Assembly (NCBI GenBank): GCA_963721805.1
Contig: CAVRJY010000005.1
Coordinates: 1-64,000 of the forward strand
Source: Nitrospirota bacterium
GTDB lineage: Bacteria > Nitrospirota > Thermodesulfovibrionia > Thermodesulfovibrionales > JdFR-86
Length of the DNA: 64,000 bases
Direction of reading: 5' to 3'
The notes under the pieces were generated by a model, which was not told the origin of the DNA, ran no database searches, and was given only the letters and a program-made list of their open reading frames with translations. Shown here piece by piece: positions 1 through 61,081 of the stretch. Position numbers and translations under genes: made by a program. Numbering within the stretch: the stretch's first letter is position 1; every line of letters begins with the position of its first letter.

Positions 1-86
1 CGCAGCAGGGTTGGATAGCGGTTTAAATACATGCCATGAACTTAAAGATTGAAAGCTGGTAAAATAAAAATGGTTAAGGGAATTCG

Positions 87-500
87 ATGAACAAACTCCA
101 TACGACACCAATAACATCCGCGAGGATGCGGGAGGTTGCCTCCTATGATACAAATATTGAGATTATCGTAAGGAAAAAACTTTTTAGCTTAGGATACCGG
201 TACAGACTTCATGACAAATCTCTTCCCTGCAAGCCTGACGTAGTTTTAAAAAAACATAAATCTGTGATTTTTATAAATGGTTGTTTTTGGCATGGTCATT
301 CAAAATGCAGTAAAGGAAAACTTAAACCGCGAACAAATGCTGCTTATTGGAAAGATAAAATTGATAGGAATATGCGGCGCGATACGAGATGTCTTTCTGA
401 ATTGAGAGATATGGGGTGGAAAGTGTTAGTGATATGGGAATGTGAAATACCTGAAACGGAACAGATATTGAAAGGTTTTTTTGCTAAAAATGATAAATAG
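87..500 (+). CDS. vsr: Very short patch repair endonuclease (Vsr)
   Basis: Vsr motifs (LPCKPDVV, IFINGCFWHGH, LVIWECE); adjacent to a C5 methyltransferase. Confidence 0.92.
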   Translation: MNKLHTTPITSARMREVASYDTNIEIIVRKKLFSLGYRYRLHDKSLPCKPDVVLKKHKSVIFINGCFWHGHSKCSKGKLKPRTNAAYWKDKIDRNMRRDTRCLSELRDMGWKVLVIWECEIPETEQILKGFFAKNDK

Positions 501-1878
501 ATATGCGATAAGCCTCTTTAGTGGCTCAGGCATTGGGGATTTAGGCTATAGAGATGCGGGGATGCGTTTTATTTCGATGTGTGAAAGCGAACATGATAGG
601 GCAGAACTATTAAGGGTCAACTATCCTGAATCTGAGGTTTATGCAGGAGATATTAACGATTATATTACGCCCATTATAGCTCAAGCGCAGGACATCATGC
701 AGAATGATAATGCCGAAATATTTTTAATATCATGTACTGCACCTTGTCAGGGCATGTCGAAAAGTGGGCAAGGCACATTATTAAGAAATATTAGGTTAGG
801 GAAACGACCAAAATTGGATCCAAGAAATCGATTGATTTTACCGGCGCTTGAAATAATCATAAAAATCAAACCATTTTTTGTAGTCTTTGAAAATGTTTGT
901 GAAATGAGAAACACAATTATTGAAGACTCAGATGGTGAATTGAGAAACATATTGGATATTATAAAAAAACGTCTTGGCAGTTCATATTATGGTCAAGCAT
1001 ATGATGTCGAATTTGCAGATTACGGCATCCCACAAAGACGGAAAAGACTAATAACCGTATTTACAAGACATGAATTAGCTATTCAACAATATACGCAAGG
1101 GCTTCCCCTAATCCCTGAGGCTACTCACTCGTTAAATGGTAAAAACGGAAAGCTTAAATGGGTTTCAGTAATGGATGCCATTAAAGACTTTCCACCCCTT
1201 GATGCGAAGAGCAAGGAAACCGCCGTGGATAATACGATTCCTTTTCATAGAGTCCCAATTCTTGATTCAAAGAAATATAATTGGATTTTAAATACGCCTC
1301 CCGCTAAGTCTGCTTTTGATAATCAATGCATAAACCCCAAGTGCAGGTCTCAATGCAATGTTACTCATGGAACAATAAAAAATATAGCGGGAATAAACCA
1401 GTCTCGAAAAGATACTCCGCTTTACTGCGAAAAATGCGGAGCACTATTACCGCGACCGTATAGTGAAAATAAAGATGGTTCCATTCGTATTATGTCAGGG
1501 TATACAAGTGCCTACAAAAGGATGGATGCAAATATGCCATGTCCTGCTATTACAAGAAATTTAAGTTTTGCTTGCTCTGACAATAAAGTCCATCCTTTTC
1601 AAAATAGAGTGTTATCTCTAGCAGAAGCGATTCGCCTGCAAACCATATCCGATTATAGATATTATTGGGGACCAATTTATAGTAAAAAAATGGACAGGAA
1701 AGAAGTTGCGCCTGATACTCTAATCCGACTCGTAATTGGTGAAAGCATACCTCCAAAGTTTACTGAGCTATTGGGAAAACACCTAATTGAAATGAGCAAA
1801 GGACAGGGGAATTATTTTAATACACACATTCAAAATAAATTGTTATTCGAATTTGAAAACACTGTTAAGTCTTGTTAG
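490..1878 (+). CDS. DNA (cytosine-5)-methyltransferase
   Basis: Motif I LFSGSG, catalytic PCQG, ENV, YGIPQRRKR, C-terminal IGESIPP; ATG at 490 preferred over TTG at 481. Confidence 0.92.
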   Translation: MINRYAISLFSGSGIGDLGYRDAGMRFISMCESEHDRAELLRVNYPESEVYAGDINDYITPIIAQAQDIMQNDNAEIFLISCTAPCQGMSKSGQGTLLRNIRLGKRPKLDPRNRLILPALEIIIKIKPFFVVFENVCEMRNTIIEDSDGELRNILDIIKKRLGSSYYGQAYDVEFADYGIPQRRKRLITVFTRHELAIQQYTQGLPLIPEATHSLNGKNGKLKWVSVMDAIKDFPPLDAKSKETAVDNTIPFHRVPILDSKKYNWILNTPPAKSAFDNQCINPKCRSQCNVTHGTIKNIAGINQSRKDTPLYCEKCGALLPRPYSENKDGSIRIMSGYTSAYKRMDANMPCPAITRNLSFACSDNKVHPFQNRVLSLAEAIRLQTISDYRYYWGPIYSKKMDRKEVAPDTLIRLVIGESIPPKFTELLGKHLIEMSKGQGNYFNTHIQNKLLFEFENTVKSC

Positions 1879-2826
1879 CATTAAATCCTCATTAGGCAGA
1901 ACTAACCATCCTTGCCCCATTTTCTTGACACCATTTTTTTTCATAATTGAAACGCTTGTCGTCCTGCCGCCACCTTTTTTGGGATGGACAATTGCGCCCC
2001 AATCAACGTTACTACGTCCTTCAGAGAAATCCAAATCATTCCTGAAAAAAACAGCAAGAACGGTAGGTAGTCTATCTACGAAATCCCAATAAATACCAAG
2101 CAATACCTCTGTCTGCTGATGGTGTGCCTTCCATTCAGCACTAACAAGTATCGGCAGCCTGGAATCACCGATAAGTGGTTTTCTAACTTTAGAAGCAGGA
2201 GGCGTATTTCCGCACGTAGCTTTAATTTCAATGCCGCCAAAAGGGTACGGACTCCAAATTGATTTATCACATTTCAATCTTCCAGTAGCATCAGTATTCG
2301 CTTCTTTGTAGTGAATGCCATTCTTGGTCATTGCGCATAGATCAGGGTATCCATCTTGATTGGGATTTACAATGAAATAATCTTTATAACATCTATAAAC
2401 TTCTCTTCCGAACACCTCGCCAACAAATGCGCTTAGATTTCGTAATCCAAGTATTTGAAAAAAATCTATCCCGTATAGGGCAGATAAGTCATGAACTAAT
2501 TCTATGGCTTTATTTGTTGACATGAGACTCTTTCTAACTAAATTTGCATCCAAACAATAACTGCAATCTTTGTCAGCAGCATAGGTTAATTCTTCTTTTT
2601 TTCGAGATGAGATTTTAAATGTCCATTGACTTCTGATGCTTCGCTGTTCTGTTACGTCTTCATTTCTTGATGCGATAATAGCTGCTTCCGAGAAGAAATT
2701 TTCAATCGGAACGTCATGTTTTTTAAGCAAAGCATCAATTTCATCAAAACTAATTGTAGCTGCGCCATGTCCACTTATTAATAGTTTTAAAGTTTTAGAG
2801 ATTACCTCTTGAATTTTGGATGACAT
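1843..2826 (-). CDS. Probable type II restriction endonuclease (PD-(D/E)xK)
   Basis: YPDL...IEIK motif; convergent with the methyltransferase; coupled to an XRE controller gene; low GC. Confidence 0.6.
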   Translation of the reverse strand: MSSKIQEVISKTLKLLISGHGAATISFDEIDALLKKHDVPIENFFSEAAIIASRNEDVTEQRSIRSQWTFKISSRKKEELTYAADKDCSYCLDANLVRKSLMSTNKAIELVHDLSALYGIDFFQILGLRNLSAFVGEVFGREVYRCYKDYFIVNPNQDGYPDLCAMTKNGIHYKEANTDATGRLKCDKSIWSPYPFGGIEIKATCGNTPPASKVRKPLIGDSRLPILVSAEWKAHHQQTEVLLGIYWDFVDRLPTVLAVFFRNDLDFSEGRSNVDWGAIVHPKKGGGRTTSVSIMKKNGVKKMGQGWLVLPNEDLMLTRLNSVFKFE

Positions 2827-3059
2827 CAGAAAATCCCTTTTAATAAATCAATAAGTTCAATTTCGAGAGCATGTGATATTTTTATCAAATTGATGAAGCT
2901 AACGTTTCTCTCTCCTCGTTCCACGTCACTAATGTACGTACGATGTAAATTAGATAGTTCTGCTAATCTTTCTTGCGAGTAGCCTTTCTTTTGGCGCACT
3001 ACACGAATAGCGTTGCCAAGATTCCTAAGACTCTCTTTTTGTTTTCCAGAAAAAGGCAT
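2826..3059 (-). CDS. XRE-family HTH regulator (R-M controller protein-like)
   Basis: SQERLAELSNLHRTYISDVERGERNVS helix-turn-helix; stop overlaps the endonuclease start. Confidence 0.85.
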   Translation of the reverse strand: MPFSGKQKESLRNLGNAIRVVRQKKGYSQERLAELSNLHRTYISDVERGERNVSFINLIKISHALEIELIDLLKGIF

Positions 3060-4923: not shown

Positions 4924-6243
4924 ATGTCGCTAACAAGGGGGAATAACCGCATGCTGAAAAAAGTTCTGATACTGCTCGCCGCGCTCATGCTCGGTTCGTG
5001 CGTCGTGCCGATGGCCCCTATGGCACCGATGGAGCCGCAGGCGCCCTACGGGCTCTCTTACGCCCCGCCGCTTGCGGTCGTGCCAGGCACCTATATCTAT
5101 GCCGCGCCGGACACGCCGGGGCTGTTCTTCTATCAGGGCTACTGGTACCGCCATTACGGCGACAGGTGGTACATGGCGACGAGGTACGACTCTGACCGCT
5201 GGTCATACATGCGCGACAACGACGTGCCGCAGGGGATCTATTATCTGCCGCAAGATTACCGCAGCAGGCTCGGGGACCGCGACCGCATCAGGACCGACGA
5301 CGTGCAGCACAACTGGCGCCAGTGGGAGCAGGAGCGCAGGTGGGGCCGCGAGAAATGGTGGCGCGACCAGCGTGACATGGGTGGCGCCCCTGCGCCGGGC
5401 TACCAGCAAGAACCGCCGCAGCTGCCTCAGTTAACGATCATGTCGCCGTCGCTGGTGGTGATCCCCGGCACATACATCTATGCCGAGCCTGATATGGAAG
5501 GGCTCTTCTTCTATCAGGGCTATTGGTATCGTCAGCAGGACAACAGATGGTACAGGGCACAGAGGTATGACACGGACCGATGGTCGTATTTGCGCGACAA
5601 CGATGTGCCAGCAGAGCTGCACGGTATCCCGCATGATTACAGCAAACGCATAGAAGGCCACAAGCGTATCAGAAACGAAGACGCCATACGCAACTGGCGC
5701 CAGTGGGAGCAGGAGCGCAGGTGGGAGCGCGATCCGTCGTGGCGTGGAGAGCGGCAGGATAAGGGTGGCCAGCAGGATAAGGGCAAGCCCGCACCATACG
5801 TGAAGCCCGAGCAGCGTGAGCAGCGCAAACCCTCACCTTACGTGCAGCCTGAGCAGCGTGAGCAGGGCAAACCCTCACCTTACGTGAAGCCCGAGCAGCG
5901 TGAGCAGGGCAAACCCTCACCTTACGTGAAGCCCGAGCAGCGTGAGCAGGGCAAACCCTCACCTTACGTGAAGCCCGAGCAGCGTGAACAGCACGATCAG
6001 CATGAGACCGGCCGTCCAGTTCAGGGGACTCCGGCAATAAACGGCCAGCAGGAAAAGGGCCTCCAGAATAAAGACAAGGCAAAGGCCAAGGAAGATAAGG
6101 CCAAGGAAGATAAGGCTAAGGCTAAGGCTAAGGCCAAACAAAAGGCCAGGGAAAAGGAAAAGGCCAAGGCCCAGGAAAAGGACAAAGACAAAGAAAAGGC
6201 GCAGCCTCAGCCGGCCGCCCCGGCCGTCCAGCCCCGCCAATAA
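4924..6243 (+). CDS. Lipoprotein with two copies of the same Trp/Tyr-rich domain, paralogue of 4176..4823
   Basis: Lipobox LGSC; two VV(I)PGTYIYA..LFFYQGYWYR..RWSY domains; low-complexity tail; real start may be ATG 4951. Confidence 0.8.
   Translation: MSLTRGNNRMLKKVLILLAALMLGSCVVPMAPMAPMEPQAPYGLSYAPPLAVVPGTYIYAAPDTPGLFFYQGYWYRHYGDRWYMATRYDSDRWSYMRDNDVPQGIYYLPQDYRSRLGDRDRIRTDDVQHNWRQWEQERRWGREKWWRDQRDMGGAPAPGYQQEPPQLPQLTIMSPSLVVIPGTYIYAEPDMEGLFFYQGYWYRQQDNRWYRAQRYDTDRWSYLRDNDVPAELHGIPHDYSKRIEGHKRIRNEDAIRNWRQWEQERRWERDPSWRGERQDKGGQQDKGKPAPYVKPEQREQRKPSPYVQPEQREQGKPSPYVKPEQREQGKPSPYVKPEQREQGKPSPYVKPEQREQHDQHETGRPVQGTPAINGQQEKGLQNKDKAKAKEDKAKEDKAKAKAKAKQKAREKEKAKAQEKDKDKEKAQPQPAAPAVQPRQ
5779..5988 (+). 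repeat. Coding tandem repeat, 5 x 42 bp (QGKPSPYVKPEQRE)
   Basis: Five in-frame near-identical units read directly. Confidence 0.9.
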
Positions 6244-14220: not shown

Positions 14221-16497
14221 CTAGAAATAAGCTCCGACCGCGAACTCCCACTCGCCCGGGGCCTCTGATCCGCGCGGCGAGAGGTTCCGGCCGTATTCGA
14301 GGCGCAGGGGGCCGATAGGCGAAAGCCAGCGCACGCCTATGCCGGCCGACTCGCGGAAGTCCGGGGTCTTGTCGTAAGCCGTCCCGATGTCCGAGAAAAC
14401 TACGCCCCTGAACTTTGCGGCCTCAGAGAGCGGGAACGTGAACTCGGTCGAGAAGATCATCTGGTTTTTGCTGCCTATGTACGTCCCCTCTGAGTCACGC
14501 GGCCCGAGGTACCTGAAACCCCTCATCGTGTAAACGCCGCCTACCTGGTAGCGCTCGGCGAGCGGCACGTCATGTCCGAACAGCCCGCTGTCGAAGCCGA
14601 GGTTGGCCGAGAGCGAGAACACGGTATTGAGCGGCAGCGGGAAGAATATCGCGGCCTGCGGCTCGATCTTCAGGAAGTAGTTGTCGCCCCCGACGCCGGC
14701 GTACGTGATGCTTAACTTCTCGCGGGTGCCGGAGTGGGGGTCGAGGTTGTTGTCCAGCGTGTTGTAGGCGACGTACGGGTTGATGCTGCTCGTGACGGAC
14801 TTGCCCTCCTGCGAGCGCAGGTACTCCGACGAGTCGTGCTTGACGTTGGTTATGTCGAGCTGCTCGATGCGGTAGCCGAGGCCGGCGCTGAAAAACTCGG
14901 TGTACTGCTTGCCCAGGCCCAGGAACAGGCCGGTGGCCTGCCTGGTATAGTTGGTGTAGTCGTAGCTCGTCCTGTAGAGCGTGTTCGTCGAGGAGATCGG
15001 CTTGTCGAAGAGCCAGGGCTCGATGAACGTCAGCTCGTACGTCGTGAGCTTCGAGCCGACCTCGGCCTTGGCCCTGACCGTCTGGCCGCGGCCGAAGAGG
15101 TTGCCCTCGGTGATGTCGACCGTGCCGACGAGCTTGTCTACCGTGCTGTAGCCCGCGCCGACGCTGAACGAGCCGGTGCTCTTTTCCTTGACGTCCACGT
15201 CGAGGTCCACGGTCTTTGTCCCGGGGTTGGGCTTGGGGTCGAACTTGACCGTCTCGAAGTAGTTGAGGTTCACCAGCCTGTCGTAGCTGCGCTTCAGGGC
15301 CGCGCCGTTGTACGTGTCGCCCTCCAGCAGCCTGATCTCGCGCCTTATGACCTTGTCTCTGGTGTTGACGTTGCCGCGTATGTCGATGCGGCCCATCGTG
15401 AAGATGTCGCTTTCGTGCACGACGAAGGCGATCGAGGCCGTGAGCTTCTCGTCGTCGGGCTTGATGTCCGGCACGACGCTCGCCATCGCGTACCCCTTGT
15501 CGGTGTAAGCGGAGGTCAGCGCGTCGAGGTCGGCGCTGAGCGTCTTGCGGCTGATGACGTCGCCGGGCTTGCTCTTGACCATAGCCTTCAGGGCTTCGGT
15601 GGTATAGATCTGGTTGCCCTCGTACGTTATGGCCGAGATCCTGTACTGCTTGCCCTCGTTGATCTTGTATACGAGGTCCACGTAGCGCTTGTCGGCCGAG
15701 TACTCTATGCGCGGGGCCGAGACGTCGGCCTTCAGGTAGCCCCTGTTGAGGTATTCGCCCCTGATGGCGTCCTCGTCGTAGTTCATCTTGGAGCGCTCGT
15801 AGCGCCCGCCGCTGAACACGTAGTTCCAGAACCACCACTCGCTGGTCTCCATCGCGCCGCGCAGCTTGCCGCTCGAGACGTGCTCGTTGCCCTCGAACCT
15901 GATGTGGCGTATCCTCACGCGGGGGCCTTCCTTGATATCGTAAAGGAGCATCACGCGGTCCGCTCCGGCCGCGCTCACGACCGGCACGACCGTGGCCAGC
16001 GGGTAGCCCTCGGTCTCGTACATGTCGCGTATCTTCGAGGCCCCGTCGGAGATCAGCACCGGGTCGGCAATGGACCCGGCATTGACGCCGAGCTTCTCCT
16101 GCAGCTTGCTGTCCTCGATGTTGTCGTTGCCCGCGAAGCCCACGGCGCGGATCGACGGCTTCTCGACCACTACGTAAATCACCTTGACGCCGCCCTCGAA
16201 GGGCTCGATATCGACCTTGACGTCCTTGAAATACCCGGTGTCGAAGAGCGCCTTGATGTCCGACGAGACGCTCTCGGTCGAAAGCGGGACCCCCACGCCC
16301 TGGCTCAGGCGCGGCCGTATCGAGGCCTCGTCAATGCGGTTTAAGCCCTTGATCTCGACGCCGCGCACCGGCGGCTGCGACGTGGGCTGCTCGTCGCCAG
16401 CGGCATATGAGTTTCCAGCCGCGCAGACGGCCGCCATGATAAGGCCCAAAAGCATCAATATTATGAAACGCCGGAAATCGACTGGTCTGGTTCTCAT
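14221..16497 (-). CDS. bamA: Outer membrane protein assembly factor BamA
   Basis: POTRA domains, TRDKVIRRE, MRGF, SPIGPLRLEYG, terminal Phe; start trimmed to ATG 16497 because the longer ORF runs into repeat C. Confidence 0.95.
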   Translation of the reverse strand: MRTRPVDFRRFIILMLLGLIMAAVCAAGNSYAAGDEQPTSQPPVRGVEIKGLNRIDEASIRPRLSQGVGVPLSTESVSSDIKALFDTGYFKDVKVDIEPFEGGVKVIYVVVEKPSIRAVGFAGNDNIEDSKLQEKLGVNAGSIADPVLISDGASKIRDMYETEGYPLATVVPVVSAAGADRVMLLYDIKEGPRVRIRHIRFEGNEHVSSGKLRGAMETSEWWFWNYVFSGGRYERSKMNYDEDAIRGEYLNRGYLKADVSAPRIEYSADKRYVDLVYKINEGKQYRISAITYEGNQIYTTEALKAMVKSKPGDVISRKTLSADLDALTSAYTDKGYAMASVVPDIKPDDEKLTASIAFVVHESDIFTMGRIDIRGNVNTRDKVIRREIRLLEGDTYNGAALKRSYDRLVNLNYFETVKFDPKPNPGTKTVDLDVDVKEKSTGSFSVGAGYSTVDKLVGTVDITEGNLFGRGQTVRAKAEVGSKLTTYELTFIEPWLFDKPISSTNTLYRTSYDYTNYTRQATGLFLGLGKQYTEFFSAGLGYRIEQLDITNVKHDSSEYLRSQEGKSVTSSINPYVAYNTLDNNLDPHSGTREKLSITYAGVGGDNYFLKIEPQAAIFFPLPLNTVFSLSANLGFDSGLFGHDVPLAERYQVGGVYTMRGFRYLGPRDSEGTYIGSKNQMIFSTEFTFPLSEAAKFRGVVFSDIGTAYDKTPDFRESAGIGVRWLSPIGPLRLEYGRNLSPRGSEAPGEWEFAVGAYF

Positions 16498-16542
16498 GGG
16501 TAGATAGTATATATCTAGGCCCCAATATAAGTAAATACGGCG

Positions 16543-16667
16543 AAAGCGCGCGAGAATTCCGGGATACTGCGTCACCAGGCAAAAAACGATCCTCGACGTA
16601 TGTCCATACGTACATAGAGGGCGAGTCTTTGAAGCCCAACGCAGTATCAAGCGATTTGGGGCGCTTT
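16543..16667. repeat. Dispersed repeat, copy C: tail-to-tail chimera of two 3' halves
   Basis: Left part is the reverse complement of a 3' arm, right part is a forward 3' arm; joined at the apex around 16597-16613. Confidence 0.8.
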
Positions 16668-16731
16668 CAAACTTCGTTAGCGCGCTGCCCCCAACTTTAC
16701 GCTCGGGGCGGTATTCTGATACTATCTACCT

Positions 16732-18108
16732 ATGACAAGATCAAGAGCCCTGACCACCGCGATTCTCCTGGCCTCACTGGCCCTTTTTTCCGTGCCCCAG
16801 TCCGTCTCCGCCGCCCCGGTAACCGAGCGCGTCTTGCAAAACGGCCTCAAGGTGATCGTCGACGAGGACCACAAGGTCCCGCTCGCGGTCTTCGAGATAT
16901 GCTACCGCGTGGGCTCGATGGACGACCCCTCCGGCCGTACGGGCTTGAGCCACATGCTCGAGCACATGATGTTCAAGGGCACGCCCAAGTATGGGTCCAA
17001 GGTCTTCTCGAAGCTCGTCATGAAATACGGCGGGACGGACAACGCCTTCACCTCGGAGAACATGACCTGCTACCACCAGGAACTCCCCTCCGACCGCATC
17101 CAGCTCTCGGTGGACCTCGAGAGCGACCGCATGCACAACCTCCTGCTGGACGAAAAGGAGTTCCAGTCCGAGCGCGACGTCGTGGCCGAGGAGCGCAGGA
17201 TGCGCGTCGACGACAACCCGGAGGCCTCGCTCGACGAGGAGGTCGACGCCATATCGTTCCTCGTGCACCCTTACCACCACCCGGTCATAGGCTGGATGTC
17301 CGAGATCAAGGCGTACACCCGCGCGGACCTCGTGGCCTACTACAGGAAATACTACTCCCCCGAGGACGCGCTCATAATAGTGGAAGGCGACGTCGACCCC
17401 GTAAAGCTGATGGACGAGATCGGCGCGACCTTCGGCAGGCTCGGCAACCCCGAGGGCCCGGTCGTGCGTGACCGGATCGAGGAGCCCGAGCAGCACGGCG
17501 AGCGCCGCGCGGTGCTCAGGCGCGCGGCCGAGCTGCCGTCGGTCATCGAGGCATGGCACGCCCCCGTGCTGCCTGACCCCGACGCATACGCCCTGGACGT
17601 GCTGGCGGAGGTGCTCGGCGGGGGCAAGTCAAGCCGGCTGTACCATTCCCTCGTATACGAAAAGAAGCTCGCCCTGGGCGTATCGGCCGACTACCAGGAC
17701 CTCTCTCGCGACCCCTACCTGTTTGAGATATCGGCCACGGCCGCCTCGGGCGTCGACCCGGCCGAGCTCGAGCGCCAGATATACGCGGAGGTCGACCGGC
17801 TCAAGGCCGGGCCCCCGACGGATTTCGAGCTGCAGAAGGCCGAAAACTCGATAGAGGCCTCGTTCGTAAAGCAGCAGGACTCGATCTACGCAAAGACGCA
17901 GGTGCTCGCCCAGTTCGAGCTCATGGGAGGCGGCTGGCGCGAGCGCGACGCCTATACCTCGCACATCCGCGCCGTGACCGCCGCCGACGTGCAGCGCGTG
18001 GCCAACAAATACCTGACCGGGGACAACAGGACGGCCGGGATGCTGGTCCCGACCGGCGAGGCCCCGGAGGCCCCGTCGAGGCCGTCAACCGGAGGGCCGA
18101 TCAGATGA
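16732..18108 (+). CDS. M16 family zinc peptidase
   Basis: HxxEH (HMLEH) motif, NAFT, signal peptide. Confidence 0.92.
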   Translation: MTRSRALTTAILLASLALFSVPQSVSAAPVTERVLQNGLKVIVDEDHKVPLAVFEICYRVGSMDDPSGRTGLSHMLEHMMFKGTPKYGSKVFSKLVMKYGGTDNAFTSENMTCYHQELPSDRIQLSVDLESDRMHNLLLDEKEFQSERDVVAEERRMRVDDNPEASLDEEVDAISFLVHPYHHPVIGWMSEIKAYTRADLVAYYRKYYSPEDALIIVEGDVDPVKLMDEIGATFGRLGNPEGPVVRDRIEEPEQHGERRAVLRRAAELPSVIEAWHAPVLPDPDAYALDVLAEVLGGGKSSRLYHSLVYEKKLALGVSADYQDLSRDPYLFEISATAASGVDPAELERQIYAEVDRLKAGPPTDFELQKAENSIEASFVKQQDSIYAKTQVLAQFELMGGGWRERDAYTSHIRAVTAADVQRVANKYLTGDNRTAGMLVPTGEAPEAPSRPSTGGPIR

Positions 18109-19427
18109 AACGCTCAATAAGCCTGCTCGCATTGATAATAACGCTCATCGCGGCTCAGACGGCGTTTGCCATAGACGCCACGCGCACCGTGCTGCCAAAC
18201 GGCCTGACCGTGCTTCAGATGGAGCGCGGCGGGCTGCCGCTCGTGGTCGTCTCGATCCTGGTGCGCGCCGGATCGCTCGAGGAGGCGAAGCCCGGGGTCG
18301 CGAACCTGACCGCCCGCCTCATGACCGAGGGCACCTCGCACCGGAGCTCCGAGCAGATAAGCTCCGAGGCCGAGTTCATAGGGGCCGGCCTGGGCGTCGG
18401 GGCATCGCGCGATTTCGCCTCGGTCAGCCTCACGGTGCTTAAAAAAGACCTCGATAAGGGGTTCGAGCTCCTCTCTGACGTGCTCTTAAACCCGAAGTTC
18501 GCGGACGAGGAGATAGCGCGCCAGAAGGCGCTGCTGAAAAACTCGCTGAAGGCCGCCGAGGACGACCCGAATTTCCTTGCCTACCGCGCTTACGAGCGCG
18601 AGGTGTACGGCCCCGACAGCCCCTACGGAAGGCTCGTACAGGGCACGCCTGAGTCCATCGACGCGATCACGCGCGAGGACCTCGTCGCGTTTCATAACGC
18701 GAGATACGCCCCCAACGACTCTATCATGTCCGTGGCCGGCGACATCACGCCGGCCGAGCTCAACGCCCTGATAGCCAAGTACCTGGGCGGATGGGCCTCG
18801 CGCCCGGTCACGGAGGCCGAGCCCCCGGCCCCGCCCGTCCAGAGCCGCCACGTCGTGCTGATCGACAAGCCCGACCTCACGCAGGCGACGATAAACATCG
18901 GGCAGACCTGCGTGCGGCGCGACGACCCGGACTACTACGCCCTTACGGTGATGAACTACGTCCTGGGCGGCGGAGGGTTCTCCTCGCGGCTGATGCAGCA
19001 CGTCCGCGACGAGCTCGGCCTCGCTTACGGCATACGGAGCTCGGTCGACGCCGAGTGGAAGGGCGGGGATTTCCAGATAGACGCCCAGACCAAAAACCGC
19101 ACCGCCTCGCAGGTGATAGACGAATCCTTCGCCGCGATGCGCCGCATCCGCGATGAGGGCATCACCGACAAGGAGCTGGCCGACGCGAAGTCCTTCATGA
19201 TCGGGAGCTTCCCGCGGAGGTTCGAGACCCTGAGCGGCATAGCCGGGTTCCTCGGCGGCGTCGAGTTTTACGGCCTCGGAATGGACTACGATGTGCAATA
19301 CAAGAGGATCATCTCCGCGATCACCGCGGCGGACGTAAAGCGCGTGGCCGAGAAGTACCTCGACCCGGATAAGTGCACGGTCGTAGTCGTCGCGCGGCAG
19401 TCTGAGGCCGGGATCAAGACGAAGTAG
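18105..19427 (+). CDS. M16 family peptidase, non-catalytic-type subunit
   Basis: M16 fold motifs (LGGGGFSSRL, RDELGLAY) without HxxEH; ATGA overlap with the previous gene. Confidence 0.88.
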   Translation: MKRSISLLALIITLIAAQTAFAIDATRTVLPNGLTVLQMERGGLPLVVVSILVRAGSLEEAKPGVANLTARLMTEGTSHRSSEQISSEAEFIGAGLGVGASRDFASVSLTVLKKDLDKGFELLSDVLLNPKFADEEIARQKALLKNSLKAAEDDPNFLAYRAYEREVYGPDSPYGRLVQGTPESIDAITREDLVAFHNARYAPNDSIMSVAGDITPAELNALIAKYLGGWASRPVTEAEPPAPPVQSRHVVLIDKPDLTQATINIGQTCVRRDDPDYYALTVMNYVLGGGGFSSRLMQHVRDELGLAYGIRSSVDAEWKGGDFQIDAQTKNRTASQVIDESFAAMRRIRDEGITDKELADAKSFMIGSFPRRFETLSGIAGFLGGVEFYGLGMDYDVQYKRIISAITAADVKRVAEKYLDPDKCTVVVVARQSEAGIKTK

Positions 19428-25211: not shown

Positions 25212-25389
25212 GCAGTTGACCTTGGGGGTGCGGGGGTCCAGCGGCTGGGCCGCGTATAACCCCCGAAAGCGCAGCCAAATCGTCTTCAGACTAGGCAGCG
25301 GCGAGAAGATCGCCCGATGGTGTACTTGGACGTACATAGAGGGCGAGTCTTTGAAGCCCAACGACGTATCAAGCGATTTGGGGCGCTTT
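25212..25389 (+). repeat. Dispersed structured repeat, copy F (head type I)
   Basis: GCAGTTGACC head; 12 bp from the head of copy E. Confidence 0.9.
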
Positions 25390-30950: not shown

Positions 30951-31152
30951 GCCGTTGACCACGGGGGTGCGGGGGGCGTCCGTTATCCTCTCCCCCCGAA
31001 AGCGCGCCCAAATCGGCTTCAGACAAGGGGACCGGTTGGCCCCTTTTCTTTAGGAAGAGGGGTCCGTGACCTCCGCCCGATGGTGTACTGTGACGTACTT
31101 AGAGGGCGAGTCTTTGAAGACCAACGACGTATCAAGCGATTTGGAGCGCTTT
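30951..31152 (+). repeat. Dispersed structured repeat, copy G (head type I, double-hairpin insert)
   Basis: Full copy with an insert at about 31027-31074. Confidence 0.9.
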
Positions 31153-31191
31153 CACTTCCGCATTGACTCCCCCCCGACATAACCGATAAAA

Positions 31192-34911: not shown

Positions 34912-34943
34912 AGGAATCTTACACCGCTCCCGCTACCTTCTTG

Positions 34944-35118
34944 AAAGCGATCCAAAGTTCCGGGATACTGCGTCACGTCTCGGAAATCCGTCCTCGATGT
35001 ACGTCTCAGTACACCGTCGGACGTTTTCCTCGCCGTTTCCTTGTCTGCCGAAATTTGGCCCGCTTTATGGGGTTAAACGCGGCCCAGCCGCTGGACCCCA
35101 TACCCCGTGGTCAACGGC
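34944..35118 (-). repeat. Dispersed structured repeat, copy H (head type I)
   Basis: Reverse-strand full copy. Confidence 0.9.
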
Positions 35119-48017: not shown

Positions 48018-48050
48018 TTCACCACATCATTCCTGTCCGATAGATCTTCT

Positions 48051-48238
48051 AAAGTCGCGCTAAATACGCGTGATACGTCGTCACCGTTCGAAAAACGATC
48101 CTCGAAGTATGTCCATATACGACTGCGGGGGTCACAGACCCCTCCTGTAAAGAAAAAGGTGCCCATGGCACCCCTAGTCTGACGCGATTTATCGCGCTTT
48201 AAAGTGGTCATTGCATAATCGTGCGAGCGGTCAACGGC
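48051..48238 (-). repeat. Dispersed structured repeat, copy K (head type II, double-hairpin insert)
   Basis: Reverse copy; apex GTAT-ATGGAC-ATAC; insert at about 48127-48174. Confidence 0.88.
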
Positions 48239-59955: not shown

Positions 59956-60189
59956 ATGAGAAAAGTACTGTTAGTCTTGATGGGAGCCGTATTTGCCTTG
60001 AGCCTCATGACTTCCGCGTATGCCATGACAAACTCCGCAACCGCCGGCAAAGGCGCTGGCACCGCGATTGCCGGGACTCAGACCGGGACGCATGCCGGCA
60101 AGACCGGAACTCACAGGCATGCCGGCTACAAGGGCTCGCATAAGCATGCGGCCAACAAGACCGGCGTGGCAAACACGACAGCCAAGTAA
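59956..60189 (+). CDS. Small secreted low-complexity protein
   Basis: GGAGG RBS, signal peptide, Thr/Gly/His/Lys-rich. Confidence 0.75.
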   Translation: MRKVLLVLMGAVFALSLMTSAYAMTNSATAGKGAGTAIAGTQTGTHAGKTGTHRHAGYKGSHKHAANKTGVANTTAK

Positions 60190-60220
60190 TAACTCTGAAT
60201 ATTACGAGCGAAGAGGGAAA

Positions 60221-60343
60221 GGGGGCCGGATGGCCCCTTCTCTTTTATGGGAGGGGTCCGTGACCCCCGCAGGTGTACTGGGATGTACTCCGAGGGAGCG
60301 GCTGCGAGCCGTGACGACGTATCACGCGATTTCGGCTCGCTTT
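60221..60343 (+). repeat. Dispersed repeat, copy P (3' half starting at the double-hairpin module)
   Basis: GGGGCC-GGAT-GGCCCC and GGGGTC-CGT-GACCCC hairpins, then the apex and right arm. Confidence 0.8.
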
Positions 60344-61081
60344 CTAGAAGGAGTGTGAGCTTTTCATTAATAGGCTAACTCCGAGGTAGGTGAATAGTAC
60401 AACCCCGAATCCCGCTGTGCCGACGATCGAAACCTTCCGCCCCTGCCAGCCGCGTACGAGCCGCGCGTGCAGGTAGAAGCCGTAGTAAATCCAGAGCACC
60501 GTGGTCCAGACCTCCTTCGGGGTCCATAGCCAGTACGTCCCCCACGCGAAATACGCCCATATCCCCCCGGCGATCATCGAGAGGCTGAACAGCCCGTAGC
60601 CTGTAAATATAGTGCGGTACTGCATCCGCTCTATCGCATCGTCGCGCTCGATCAGGTATATCGCACCGAGCACCGTGGCCACGGCGAAGACCGCGTATGA
60701 GAAGAACGAGAGCGCCACGTGGAGCTCGAACCAGTAGGTGCGCAGAATCGGGGGGAGGAACCCGGCATGAGGGGGCGTGGCGAGGGCGACCGCGGTGCAC
60801 AGCGCGCAGATGAGCGCGAGCACTCGGAAGTAGGCCGGGCGCTGCGGGCCTGAGTGGTGCACCGCGAGGCCGAAGGCCGCGACCGAGGCCGCGAGGAAAT
60901 TAAGCGTATCGTGAACGCCGATCAGGGGCAGGCGGCCCATCACGAGCCCGCGCGAGGCGATATAGGCAGCCTGCGCGATGAGCCCGGCATACAGCAGCGG
61001 CCTCCAGGCCAGCGCGCCTATGTATAGACCGAGGGCGATAGCTGGCAGCGCGGCCAGGGAGAGGCCCTGTGGGTCGTTCAA
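60344..61081 (-). CDS. ccsA: Cytochrome c biogenesis protein CcsA/ResC
   Basis: WWD domain GGIWAYFAWGTYWLWTPKEVW; conserved His residues. Confidence 0.9.
   Translation of the reverse strand: MNDPQGLSLAALPAIALGLYIGALAWRPLLYAGLIAQAAYIASRGLVMGRLPLIGVHDTLNFLAASVAAFGLAVHHSGPQRPAYFRVLALICALCTAVALATPPHAGFLPPILRTYWFELHVALSFFSYAVFAVATVLGAIYLIERDDAIERMQYRTIFTGYGLFSLSMIAGGIWAYFAWGTYWLWTPKEVWTTVLWIYYGFYLHARLVRGWQGRKVSIVGTAGFGVVLFTYLGVSLLMKSSHSF

Follow-up and report, generated by a model that had tools for sequence, protein, structure and literature searches.

Two right arms of a dispersed hairpin repeat are joined tip to tip between bamA and two M16 peptidase genes of a Nitrospirota bacterium

The 234-nt gap between bamA and a pair of M16-family peptidase genes in the genome of a Nitrospirota bacterium contains a 127-nt block (16542-16668) that belongs to the dispersed repeat family of the window (the whole stretch of 64,000 nt analyzed here) and that consists of two right arms of the repeat in opposite orientations, fused at their hairpin tips. 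We infer that the block is a remnant of two copies of the repeat that lay head to head and whose tip loops were joined by a single illegitimate deletion, an origin to which we give a probability of roughly 0.55. The block is unique in the genome, and the hairpin tip at which its arms meet is a recurrent boundary in other incomplete copies of the same family. The features of the locus are as follows.

14221-16497, minus strand: bamA, encoding five POTRA repeats and an Omp85 barrel (Pfam PF07244, 2e-68; PF01103, 3e-56)
16499-16510, minus strand, just before the bamA ATG, and 16719-16730, plus strand, just before the M16 ATG: 12-nt word ATACTATCTACC
16506-16535, minus strand: promoter-like site of bamA (TTTACT, 18 nt, TATACT) from a consensus scan, followed after 8 nt by the ATG at 16497 and 7 nt away from the repeat
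16540-16607, minus strand: minor-subfamily right arm (GTAT..ATAC tip, CCCGGAA outer stem) that includes the 6-nt loop, outer end toward bamA, from the right-arm profile
16542-16549: outer terminus GAAAGCGC, inverted partner of GCGCTTTC at 16661-16668, read directly and paired in the predicted fold
16596-16611: tip junction, a perfect mini-palindrome (ACGTAT-GTCC-ATACGT), read directly
16608-16668, plus strand: right arm, main subfamily, outer end toward the M16 gene, from the right-arm profile
16696-16723, plus strand: promoter-like site of the first M16 gene (TTTACG, 16 nt, GATACT), read by eye and not in the consensus-scan list
16732-18108 and 18105-19427, plus strand: two M16-family peptidase genes (16732-19427 together), each with Pfam PF00675 and PF05193

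Results

The block consists of two right arms of different subfamilies

From 161 full copies of the repeat we made one profile per arm, the right-arm profile with the loop included, and ran both over 16480-16740. The right-arm profile matched on the plus strand (16608-16673, 67.6 bits, E 1e-22) and on the minus strand (16605-16540, 30.9 bits, E 3e-11), with E-values that exclude a right/right architecture by chance. The left-arm profile gave no match in this interval with filters off and E up to 10, and the head is absent from the block, since a whole-element profile covers only positions 52-187 (minus strand) and 127-190 (plus strand) of 200. The arm and whole-element profiles thus bear out the earlier note on this DNA, which had described two right arms with neither a left arm nor a head. 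A covariance model of the whole core scores the block at 46.2 bits on the plus strand and 21.6 bits on the minus strand, unlike normal copies, which score 135-146 bits (23 copies of this genome scored). The predicted fold of the block has an energy of -49.5 kcal/mol over 127 nt (z of -4.5 against shuffles), or -0.39 kcal/mol per nt, compared with a median of -57 kcal/mol and a 5-95% range of -0.50 to -0.37 kcal/mol per nt for 140 normal cores. The block is therefore predicted to retain a long hairpin of about 125 nt with an energy within the range of normal cores.

The plus-strand arm is close to the consensus of the family, with 97-98% identity to many copies and an exact 52-nt word in common with another copy. 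Its bases 16609-16667 match 25331-25389 at 57 of 59 positions, and the sole difference is the two adjacent bases of a GCAG/GACG variant, just as had been claimed. The best match elsewhere for the minus-strand arm is 83.6% identical over 73 nt (C1:655854-655926); its GTAT..ATAC tip type occurs in 13 copies in the genome, this arm included, and its CCCGGAA outer stem is the type of the copy at 34941-35067. The two arms are identical to one another at 42 of 67 positions (63%) and belong to different subfamilies. This degree of divergence excludes a fold-back copy of a single arm, and fold-back or quasi-palindrome correction of one copy was rejected as an origin on the same grounds.

The arms are joined via their tip-proximal (5') ends, and their outer ends face the flanking genes. 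The junction spells GTAT-GTCCATAC-GTAC, with a spacing of 8 nt (GTAT-GTCCAT-AC-GTAC): the loop of the minus-strand copy is intact (16602-16607), that of the plus-strand copy is reduced to AC (16608-16609), and the homology of each arm to other copies begins at the junction bases, inside the loops of both hairpins. Judged against the nearest copies, the joint has at most 1 nt of microhomology and no signature of GTAC-to-GTAC slippage, and exact words across it (16586-16608) recur in the genome up to 23 nt and no longer. The proposal that the junction sits at the hairpin apex holds in that both breaks fall within tip loops, but the GTAC-N6-GTAC sequence proposed for it is not what is found. The description of the block as two fused right arms is right, with the correction to "tail-to-tail" that the arms meet by their tip ends and face outward.

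A promoter-like match (TTGAAA, 16 nt, GATACT) lies at 16670-16643 on the minus strand, where the right arm is read backwards, and points inward through the tip; its bases are conserved in the repeat family.

The repeat family is abundant, uncatalogued and structurally conserved

With a family profile built from 14 window copies we found 239 matches in the genome (2.78 Mb in 9 contigs; the assembly is 94% complete), 177 of them near full length and 62 partial. A normal copy of about 190 nt comprises a head, a left arm, a tip (GTAC, 6 nt, GTAC) and a right arm with a terminal GCGCTTT, the head being made up of an AT-rich stretch, GCCGTTGACC, and then a variable G-run/C-run hairpin or other short segment. 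The core from GAAAGCGC to GCGCTTTC forms one long predicted hairpin, and compensatory changes on both sides keep the pairing at 8 of 29 predicted pairs among 11 window copies. In a covariance scan in which at most 23 candidates were scored per genome, the family was present in 22 of 151 genomes of the order. Rfam holds no family that matches at gathering threshold in the window, or at E up to 5 over three copies, and a literature check that was not exhaustive found no such repeat described for Nitrospir*. The right-arm ends show no bias toward either end of genes, facing 90 gene stops and 84 gene starts (177 full copies, with crude ORF calls).

The family has also been host to other elements. 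An IS30-family insertion sequence of 1.1 kb is present in four identical copies (C1:387161-388446, C1:649215-650503, C1:759531-760815 and C2:396976-398254), all at the same position of the left arm, after CAGACAAGGCAGG, and therefore targets the repeat. A second small element, which replaces the middle of the left arm, consists of a GGGGCC..GGCCCC hairpin, a T-rich stretch and then GGTGCCCGTGGCACC or GGGGTCCGTGACCCC (window 30999-31155, 48049-48200 and 60182-60354; C1:25442, C4:119896, C4:349109 and C5:87728). At C1:456388-456673 a partial head runs straight into a tandem array of three right arms, and one and the same spacer of about 25 nt follows every arm. Elsewhere in the window, positions 1-3000 have a G+C content of about 0.38, compared with about 0.60 for the genome, and may be foreign DNA, and 5770-6033 holds about six tandem copies of a 42-nt unit within an open reading frame.

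Inverted neighbors always have their right arms outward

A genome-wide census with the arm profiles returned 230 right-arm and 200 left-arm matches, and 190 of the right arms have a left arm directly upstream. Exactly one locus among the 230 right-arm matches has two right arms tip to tip, namely the block between bamA and M16; there is no left/left tip-to-tip junction among the 200 left-arm matches in the assembly, which contains no second tip fusion either. Among five repeat-bearing relatives a loose pattern for right/right fusions gave 7 matches, 0 of them with a significant right-arm match, and among metagenome contigs a search for main-subfamily right/right fusions gave 2 pattern matches, both of them unrelated palindromes. 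The reciprocal left/left chimera and the further apex fusions that had been anticipated were accordingly found in neither the assembly, the five relatives nor the metagenome scan.

Repeat matches within 400 nt of each other form 14 tandem pairs, 8 head-to-head pairs (the block included) and 0 tail-to-tail pairs, so that inverted neighbors always have their right arms outward, as in the block. The genome thus holds the arrangement expected of a precursor, in seven intact head-to-head pairs:

C1:25442
C1:34163
C1:655567
C2:113018
C4:339616
C5:25032 (in the window)
C6:7052

At least five of the seven combine different subfamilies, and those at C1:655567, C2:113018 and C6:7052 combine a main-subfamily copy with a minor-subfamily copy. 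The closest relative of the minus-strand arm of the block is the minor copy of one such pair (C1:655567-655922). Divergent gene starts flank three of the seven, as they do the block, with the right-arm end 49-147 nt from the ORF (crude ORF calls). In the pair at C1:25442/25571 one copy is already down to a right arm, a tip and about 10 nt of left arm.

The hairpin tip is a recurrent, one-sided break point

Forty right-arm matches have no recognized left arm. Two of these are the arms of the block, and 13 others keep the usual loop of the TGNGAC kind while unrelated sequence, in ten junction types, replaces the first GTAC and the left arm. Eight retain the first GTAC and the end of a left arm that is interrupted by another small insert, seven belong to a divergent subfamily whose left arm is missed by the profile, eight are deeper truncations or weak matches, and two are right arms of copies that host a nested insertion. 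In that insertion a headless copy sits precisely within another copy's tip (C1:1546415-1546724 and C4:138124-138430, which are copies of one composite), and its two hosts provide the only left arms that end at the tip. Across the ten junction types the solo right arms begin no more than about 3 nt from the 5' edge of the loop, and the boundary cannot be placed more finely given that loop sequence varies. Taken together, these findings indicate a recurrent, one-sided break point where the first GTAC meets the loop. The minus-strand arm of the block ends exactly at this boundary; the plus-strand arm retains two loop bases.

Although the apex had been proposed as a break point, and the 13 solo arms and the nested copy agree with this, the GTAC motif is not a conserved site. 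Among 14 copies from 14 related genomes the tip stem contains GTAC or GCAC in 3, and in the other 11 it is a different, covarying stem (e.g. GCGCAG..CTGCG and GCGTAG..CTACG), which argues that the break point is structural and not a sequence-specific site. GTAC occurs 5989 times in the genome against 6142 expected (0.975), with 375 of the sites inside repeat matches; because it is not under-represented, restriction at GTAC was rejected. A sequence-specific recombination site of the form GTAC-N6-GTAC is not supported either: the core is not conserved, and neither left/left products nor further tip fusions were found in the genome, the five relatives or the metagenome scan.

Candidate enzymes and parent elements

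As candidate enzymes we searched for Y1 transposase, TnpB, Ku and SbcD. The genome has Y1 (HUH) transposase genes at six PF01797 matches only, all in identical IS200-type copies of about 600 bp that encode the Y1 transposase alone (C1:42301, 366622, 1252034 and 1452182; C4:138543 and 146508). Every insertion of these elements directly follows TAAC; their end hairpin is CCCCGTGGCTTGCCACGGGG, and two of them lie beside repeat copies. Mobilization of the repeat by the IS200 TnpA was rejected because the end hairpins of the IS200-type copies are unrelated to the repeat. TnpB was not found in the 94%-complete assembly, and the idea that the repeat is a relic of a TnpB guide RNA was set aside with it. 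SbcD, a hairpin nuclease, and Ku are the textbook enzymes for cleavage of hairpin tips and for end joining; in the same assembly Ku (PF02735) gave no match, nor did SbcD (TIGR00619), which was detected in 13 of 14 control genomes. The assembly in which neither protein was detected contains more than 200 long hairpin repeats and several long quasi-palindromes.

The block resembles a miniature inverted-repeat element (MITE) in having terminal inverted repeats (GAAAGCGC at 16542-16549 and GCGCTTTC at 16661-16668). There is no direct repeat flanking 16542 and 16668 that could represent a target-site duplication, and we found no insertion sequence whose ends would make it a candidate parent; neither the IS30-type nor the IS200-type elements resemble the repeat at their ends.

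The block lies between two conserved promoter-like sites

The block ends 45 nt from the bamA ATG and 64 nt from the M16 ATG, and lies upstream of both promoter-like sites, probably without a function of its own. Between the M16 site and the ATG at 16732 there are 8 nt, and the site is 28 nt away from the repeat. A TTTAC...TATACT layout is also found upstream of bamA in relatives, and TTTAC followed after 16-17 nt by a GATAAT-type box is found upstream of M16 in five genomes (G001, G003, G005, G008 and G010), where the box lies 6-13 nt before the start codon, at 8 nt in G003 and G005. For both genes studied here, 8 nt with no Shine-Dalgarno-like stretch lie between the -10-like hexamer and the ATG, a layout that suggests, from the sequence, that the bamA and M16 mRNAs may be leaderless or near-leaderless; the same 8-nt spacing from -10 box to ATG is seen at some orthologues and at many other genes adjoining repeat copies.

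The two flanks of the block are also alike. The 12-nt word ATACTATCTACC reaches from the -10-like box almost to the ATG in both bamA and M16, in inverted orientation, and these are its only 2 occurrences on both strands of the 2.78 Mb, compared with about 0.1 expected. When aligned, the flanks are identical at 18 of 20 positions, a score reached by 0 of 2000 shuffles. Orthologous flank sites in relatives are less alike, and thus the extra likeness is lineage-specific; it extends the symmetry of the locus past the repeat. That the two promoters are inverted duplicates of each other was rejected because each gene has the same layout in relatives; the shared layout does not account for the 12-nt word.

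In relatives from other genera, whose M16 proteins share about 50% amino-acid identity with those here, bamA and M16 are neighbors at 0 of 12 M16 loci and 0 of 7 bamA loci, and their adjacency in this genome is therefore derived. In five genomes (G002, G005, G006, G008 and G010), out of the eight of the same family whose M16 locus was compared, the M16 pair instead diverges from a pilB-pilT-pilC operon; here, the orthologous operon, which encodes PilB-, PilT- and PilC-type proteins, lies on another contig (C4:85838-93061). No repeat copy lies upstream of the pilB operon in this genome, the nearest match being at C4:94203, and none lies in the M16 intergenic region at the 12 relatives' loci; G002 has one repeat copy 7.6 kb from bamA. 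A BamA query of the genome contigs returned only four distant matches (23-33% identity), and of the metagenome contigs 64 pattern matches, 0 of them relatives. There is no step in GC skew at 16.6 kb. Because the promoter layouts are shared with orthologues, DNA new to the junction extends no further than about 16536-16695, and the remnant makes up most of this interval. The suggestion that the locus is a rearrangement breakpoint therefore stands to the extent that the adjacency is derived, but the change in gene order cannot be tied to the repeat: the relatives are distant, and a search for the reciprocal product found none.

Discussion

The simplest account of the block is a deletion between two hairpin tips. 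Two copies would have lain head to head, either adjacent or flanking a segment since lost, with their right arms outward to bamA and M16. One illegitimate joining, whose end points both fell where the tip loops of the two hairpins are single-stranded, would then have removed both left arms, both heads and everything between, leaving right arm fused to right arm. The breaks may have occurred at the tips of extruded hairpins or cruciforms and been followed by end joining, or the replication machinery may have switched template between the tips. Such a deletion predicts the outward arms, the mixed subfamilies and the missing reciprocal, as a left/left product is not expected if the excised middle was lost, and the placement of both end points in 6-nt loops of elements of about 190 nt is not random. 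In support of this reading we count the seven intact head-to-head pairs with their mixed subfamilies, the presence of the minus arm's relative in such a pair, and the retention by the minus arm of its whole loop, as in the 13 other solo right-arm matches. Neither a precursor allele nor a close relative of the locus was found, so the parent copies are hypothetical. Counting against the deletion are the near absence of microhomology and of a slippage signature, with which no repair route is indicated, the fact that neither textbook enzyme for tip cleavage and end joining is evident, and the excess of the 13 solo right arms over tip-ending left arms, an imbalance that a symmetric model of breakage at the center does not predict. 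Because the plus arm is near-consensus and the minus arm is at most 84% identical to its best match, the halves of the block may differ in age.

The earlier note had favored strand exchange at the tips between two copies in antiparallel alignment, and was correct that ordinary homologous recombination between in-register copies would not yield a right/right product. An exchange between distant copies, producing an inversion or translocation that joined bamA to M16 and left a reciprocal left/left junction elsewhere, would fit the derived adjacency of the two genes, the separation of M16 from the pilB-pilT-pilC operon with which it is divergent in most of the same-family genomes, and the restriction of non-ancestral DNA to an interval of which 127 nt are the remnant. 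We nevertheless regard it as unlikely, and it is not needed, given that a single deletion in a head-to-head pair gives the same product: none of the 200 left-arm matches forms a left/left junction, no repeat copy lies upstream of pilB here or in the M16 intergenic region of the relatives, and in genomes of other genera synteny is expected to break at many intergenic sites regardless of the repeat. Alternatively, two solo right-arm modules may have been juxtaposed by separate events, for example by placement of a tip-truncated arm against an exposed tip. The 13 other solo right arms that start at the loop, the tandem right-arm array on C1, the tip that accepted a nested copy at least once, and the unequal similarity of the arms to the family (84% and 98%) are all compatible with this; however, the inter-arm gap is 2 nt, exactly tip to tip, there is no other inverted pair of solos in the genome, and with about 20 solos in 2.8 Mb we roughly estimate the chance of an untargeted coincidence at below 1e-3, so that we consider separate events quite unlikely.

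That the fusion is a by-product of two cuts by a structure-specific enzyme, which nicks the 5' edge of the loop and mobilizes or rearranges the right arm, is in our judgment a rather improbable explanation of the block. It would account for the narrow placement of the boundary in the ten junction types and for the strong excess of solo right arms over tip-ending left arms, and it accords with the maintenance of the fold by compensatory changes, but no candidate enzyme was found (the Y1 genes belong to IS200-type elements with unrelated end hairpins, and TnpB was not detected), conservation of the tip sequence does not extend across the order, and the variable loop allows the boundary to be placed only to about 3 nt. 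Least credible is an artefact of assembly that joined two loci inside a repeat. A short-word assembler could have mis-threaded the exact 52-nt word in the plus arm, which would affect only the link from that arm to M16, and contig C5 does end inside a repeat copy, with the nested copy on C1 only about 440 bases from a contig end. The junction itself lies in unique sequence, and as words crossing it recur only up to 23 nt, repeat collapse cannot have created it; nor can a fold-back read, because the arms are different sequences.

A deletion between two tips has counterparts in known systems. At the human PATRRs of t(11;22) and t(17;22), breaks at palindrome centers join the arms of two different palindromes, and deletions in E. 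coli with one end near the center of such palindromes have been documented (PMC1851657). The likeness lies in the joining, at their centers (tips), of two different hairpin palindromes that are fragile via cruciform or hairpin extrusion; as described there, PATRRs are AT-rich palindromes of 190-600 bp that undergo reciprocal translocation with eukaryotic repair (PMC1851657). The block, by contrast, is a GC-rich bacterial hairpin of 125 nt, probably the product of a local deletion, with no reciprocal and with neither SbcD nor Ku detected. Loss of inverted repeats in E. coli by slipped misalignment has been described together with the instability of AAV ITRs (PMC11754738), and palindrome-stimulated deletion in E. 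coli, a group that takes in rearrangements of interrupted palindromes (PMC3315005), likewise removes the inner part of a long inverted repeat (PMC11754738), a head-to-head pair of the present repeat being such a quasi-palindrome. Those deletions are described as usually occurring between short direct repeats and as partly SbcCD-dependent (PMC11754738), whereas the inferred microhomology here is at most 1 nt and SbcD was not found.

REP/BIME sequences and REPINs resemble the family: they are extragenic, abundant and hairpin-forming, and are found singly, as inverted doublets that form a hairpin, and in tandem arrays. A REP is described as a palindrome of 20-40 nt and a REPIN as two like REPs (PMC3116915). 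The arms of the block differ in being about 60 nt long, in not being palindromic themselves and in belonging to different subfamilies at 63% identity, and they are thus not an inverted doublet of like units. No RAYT-like single-copy gene flanked by repeats was found in the 94%-complete assembly. BOX, Correia/NEMIS and ERIC elements are likewise intergenic, measure 100-200 nt, have terminal inverted repeats and shuffle their modules. The block has no sequence or Rfam relation to them, no target duplication and no matching parent insertion sequence that we could find.

Our findings suggest that breaks at the tips can reduce two paired hairpin repeats to a remnant of two arms, an instability of palindromes that is already known elsewhere. 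At this locus the remnant marks the only non-ancestral DNA between the two conserved promoters of essential envelope genes. Taken alone, the block is a one-off scar, and its value lies in the wider pattern of tip breakage within the family: nearly every copy without a left half starts at the same few loop bases, which makes the tip a fragile or processed point. A speculative extension of this pattern, to which we attach low odds, is that the 5' edge of the loop is the cut site of a structure-specific enzyme and that the right arm with its loop is a unit that is excised and re-joined. If so, one reaction would have left its footprints in the nested copy, in the ten solo-arm types and in the right/right fusion, and cutting at the tip would provide a first handle on how this repeat family moves.
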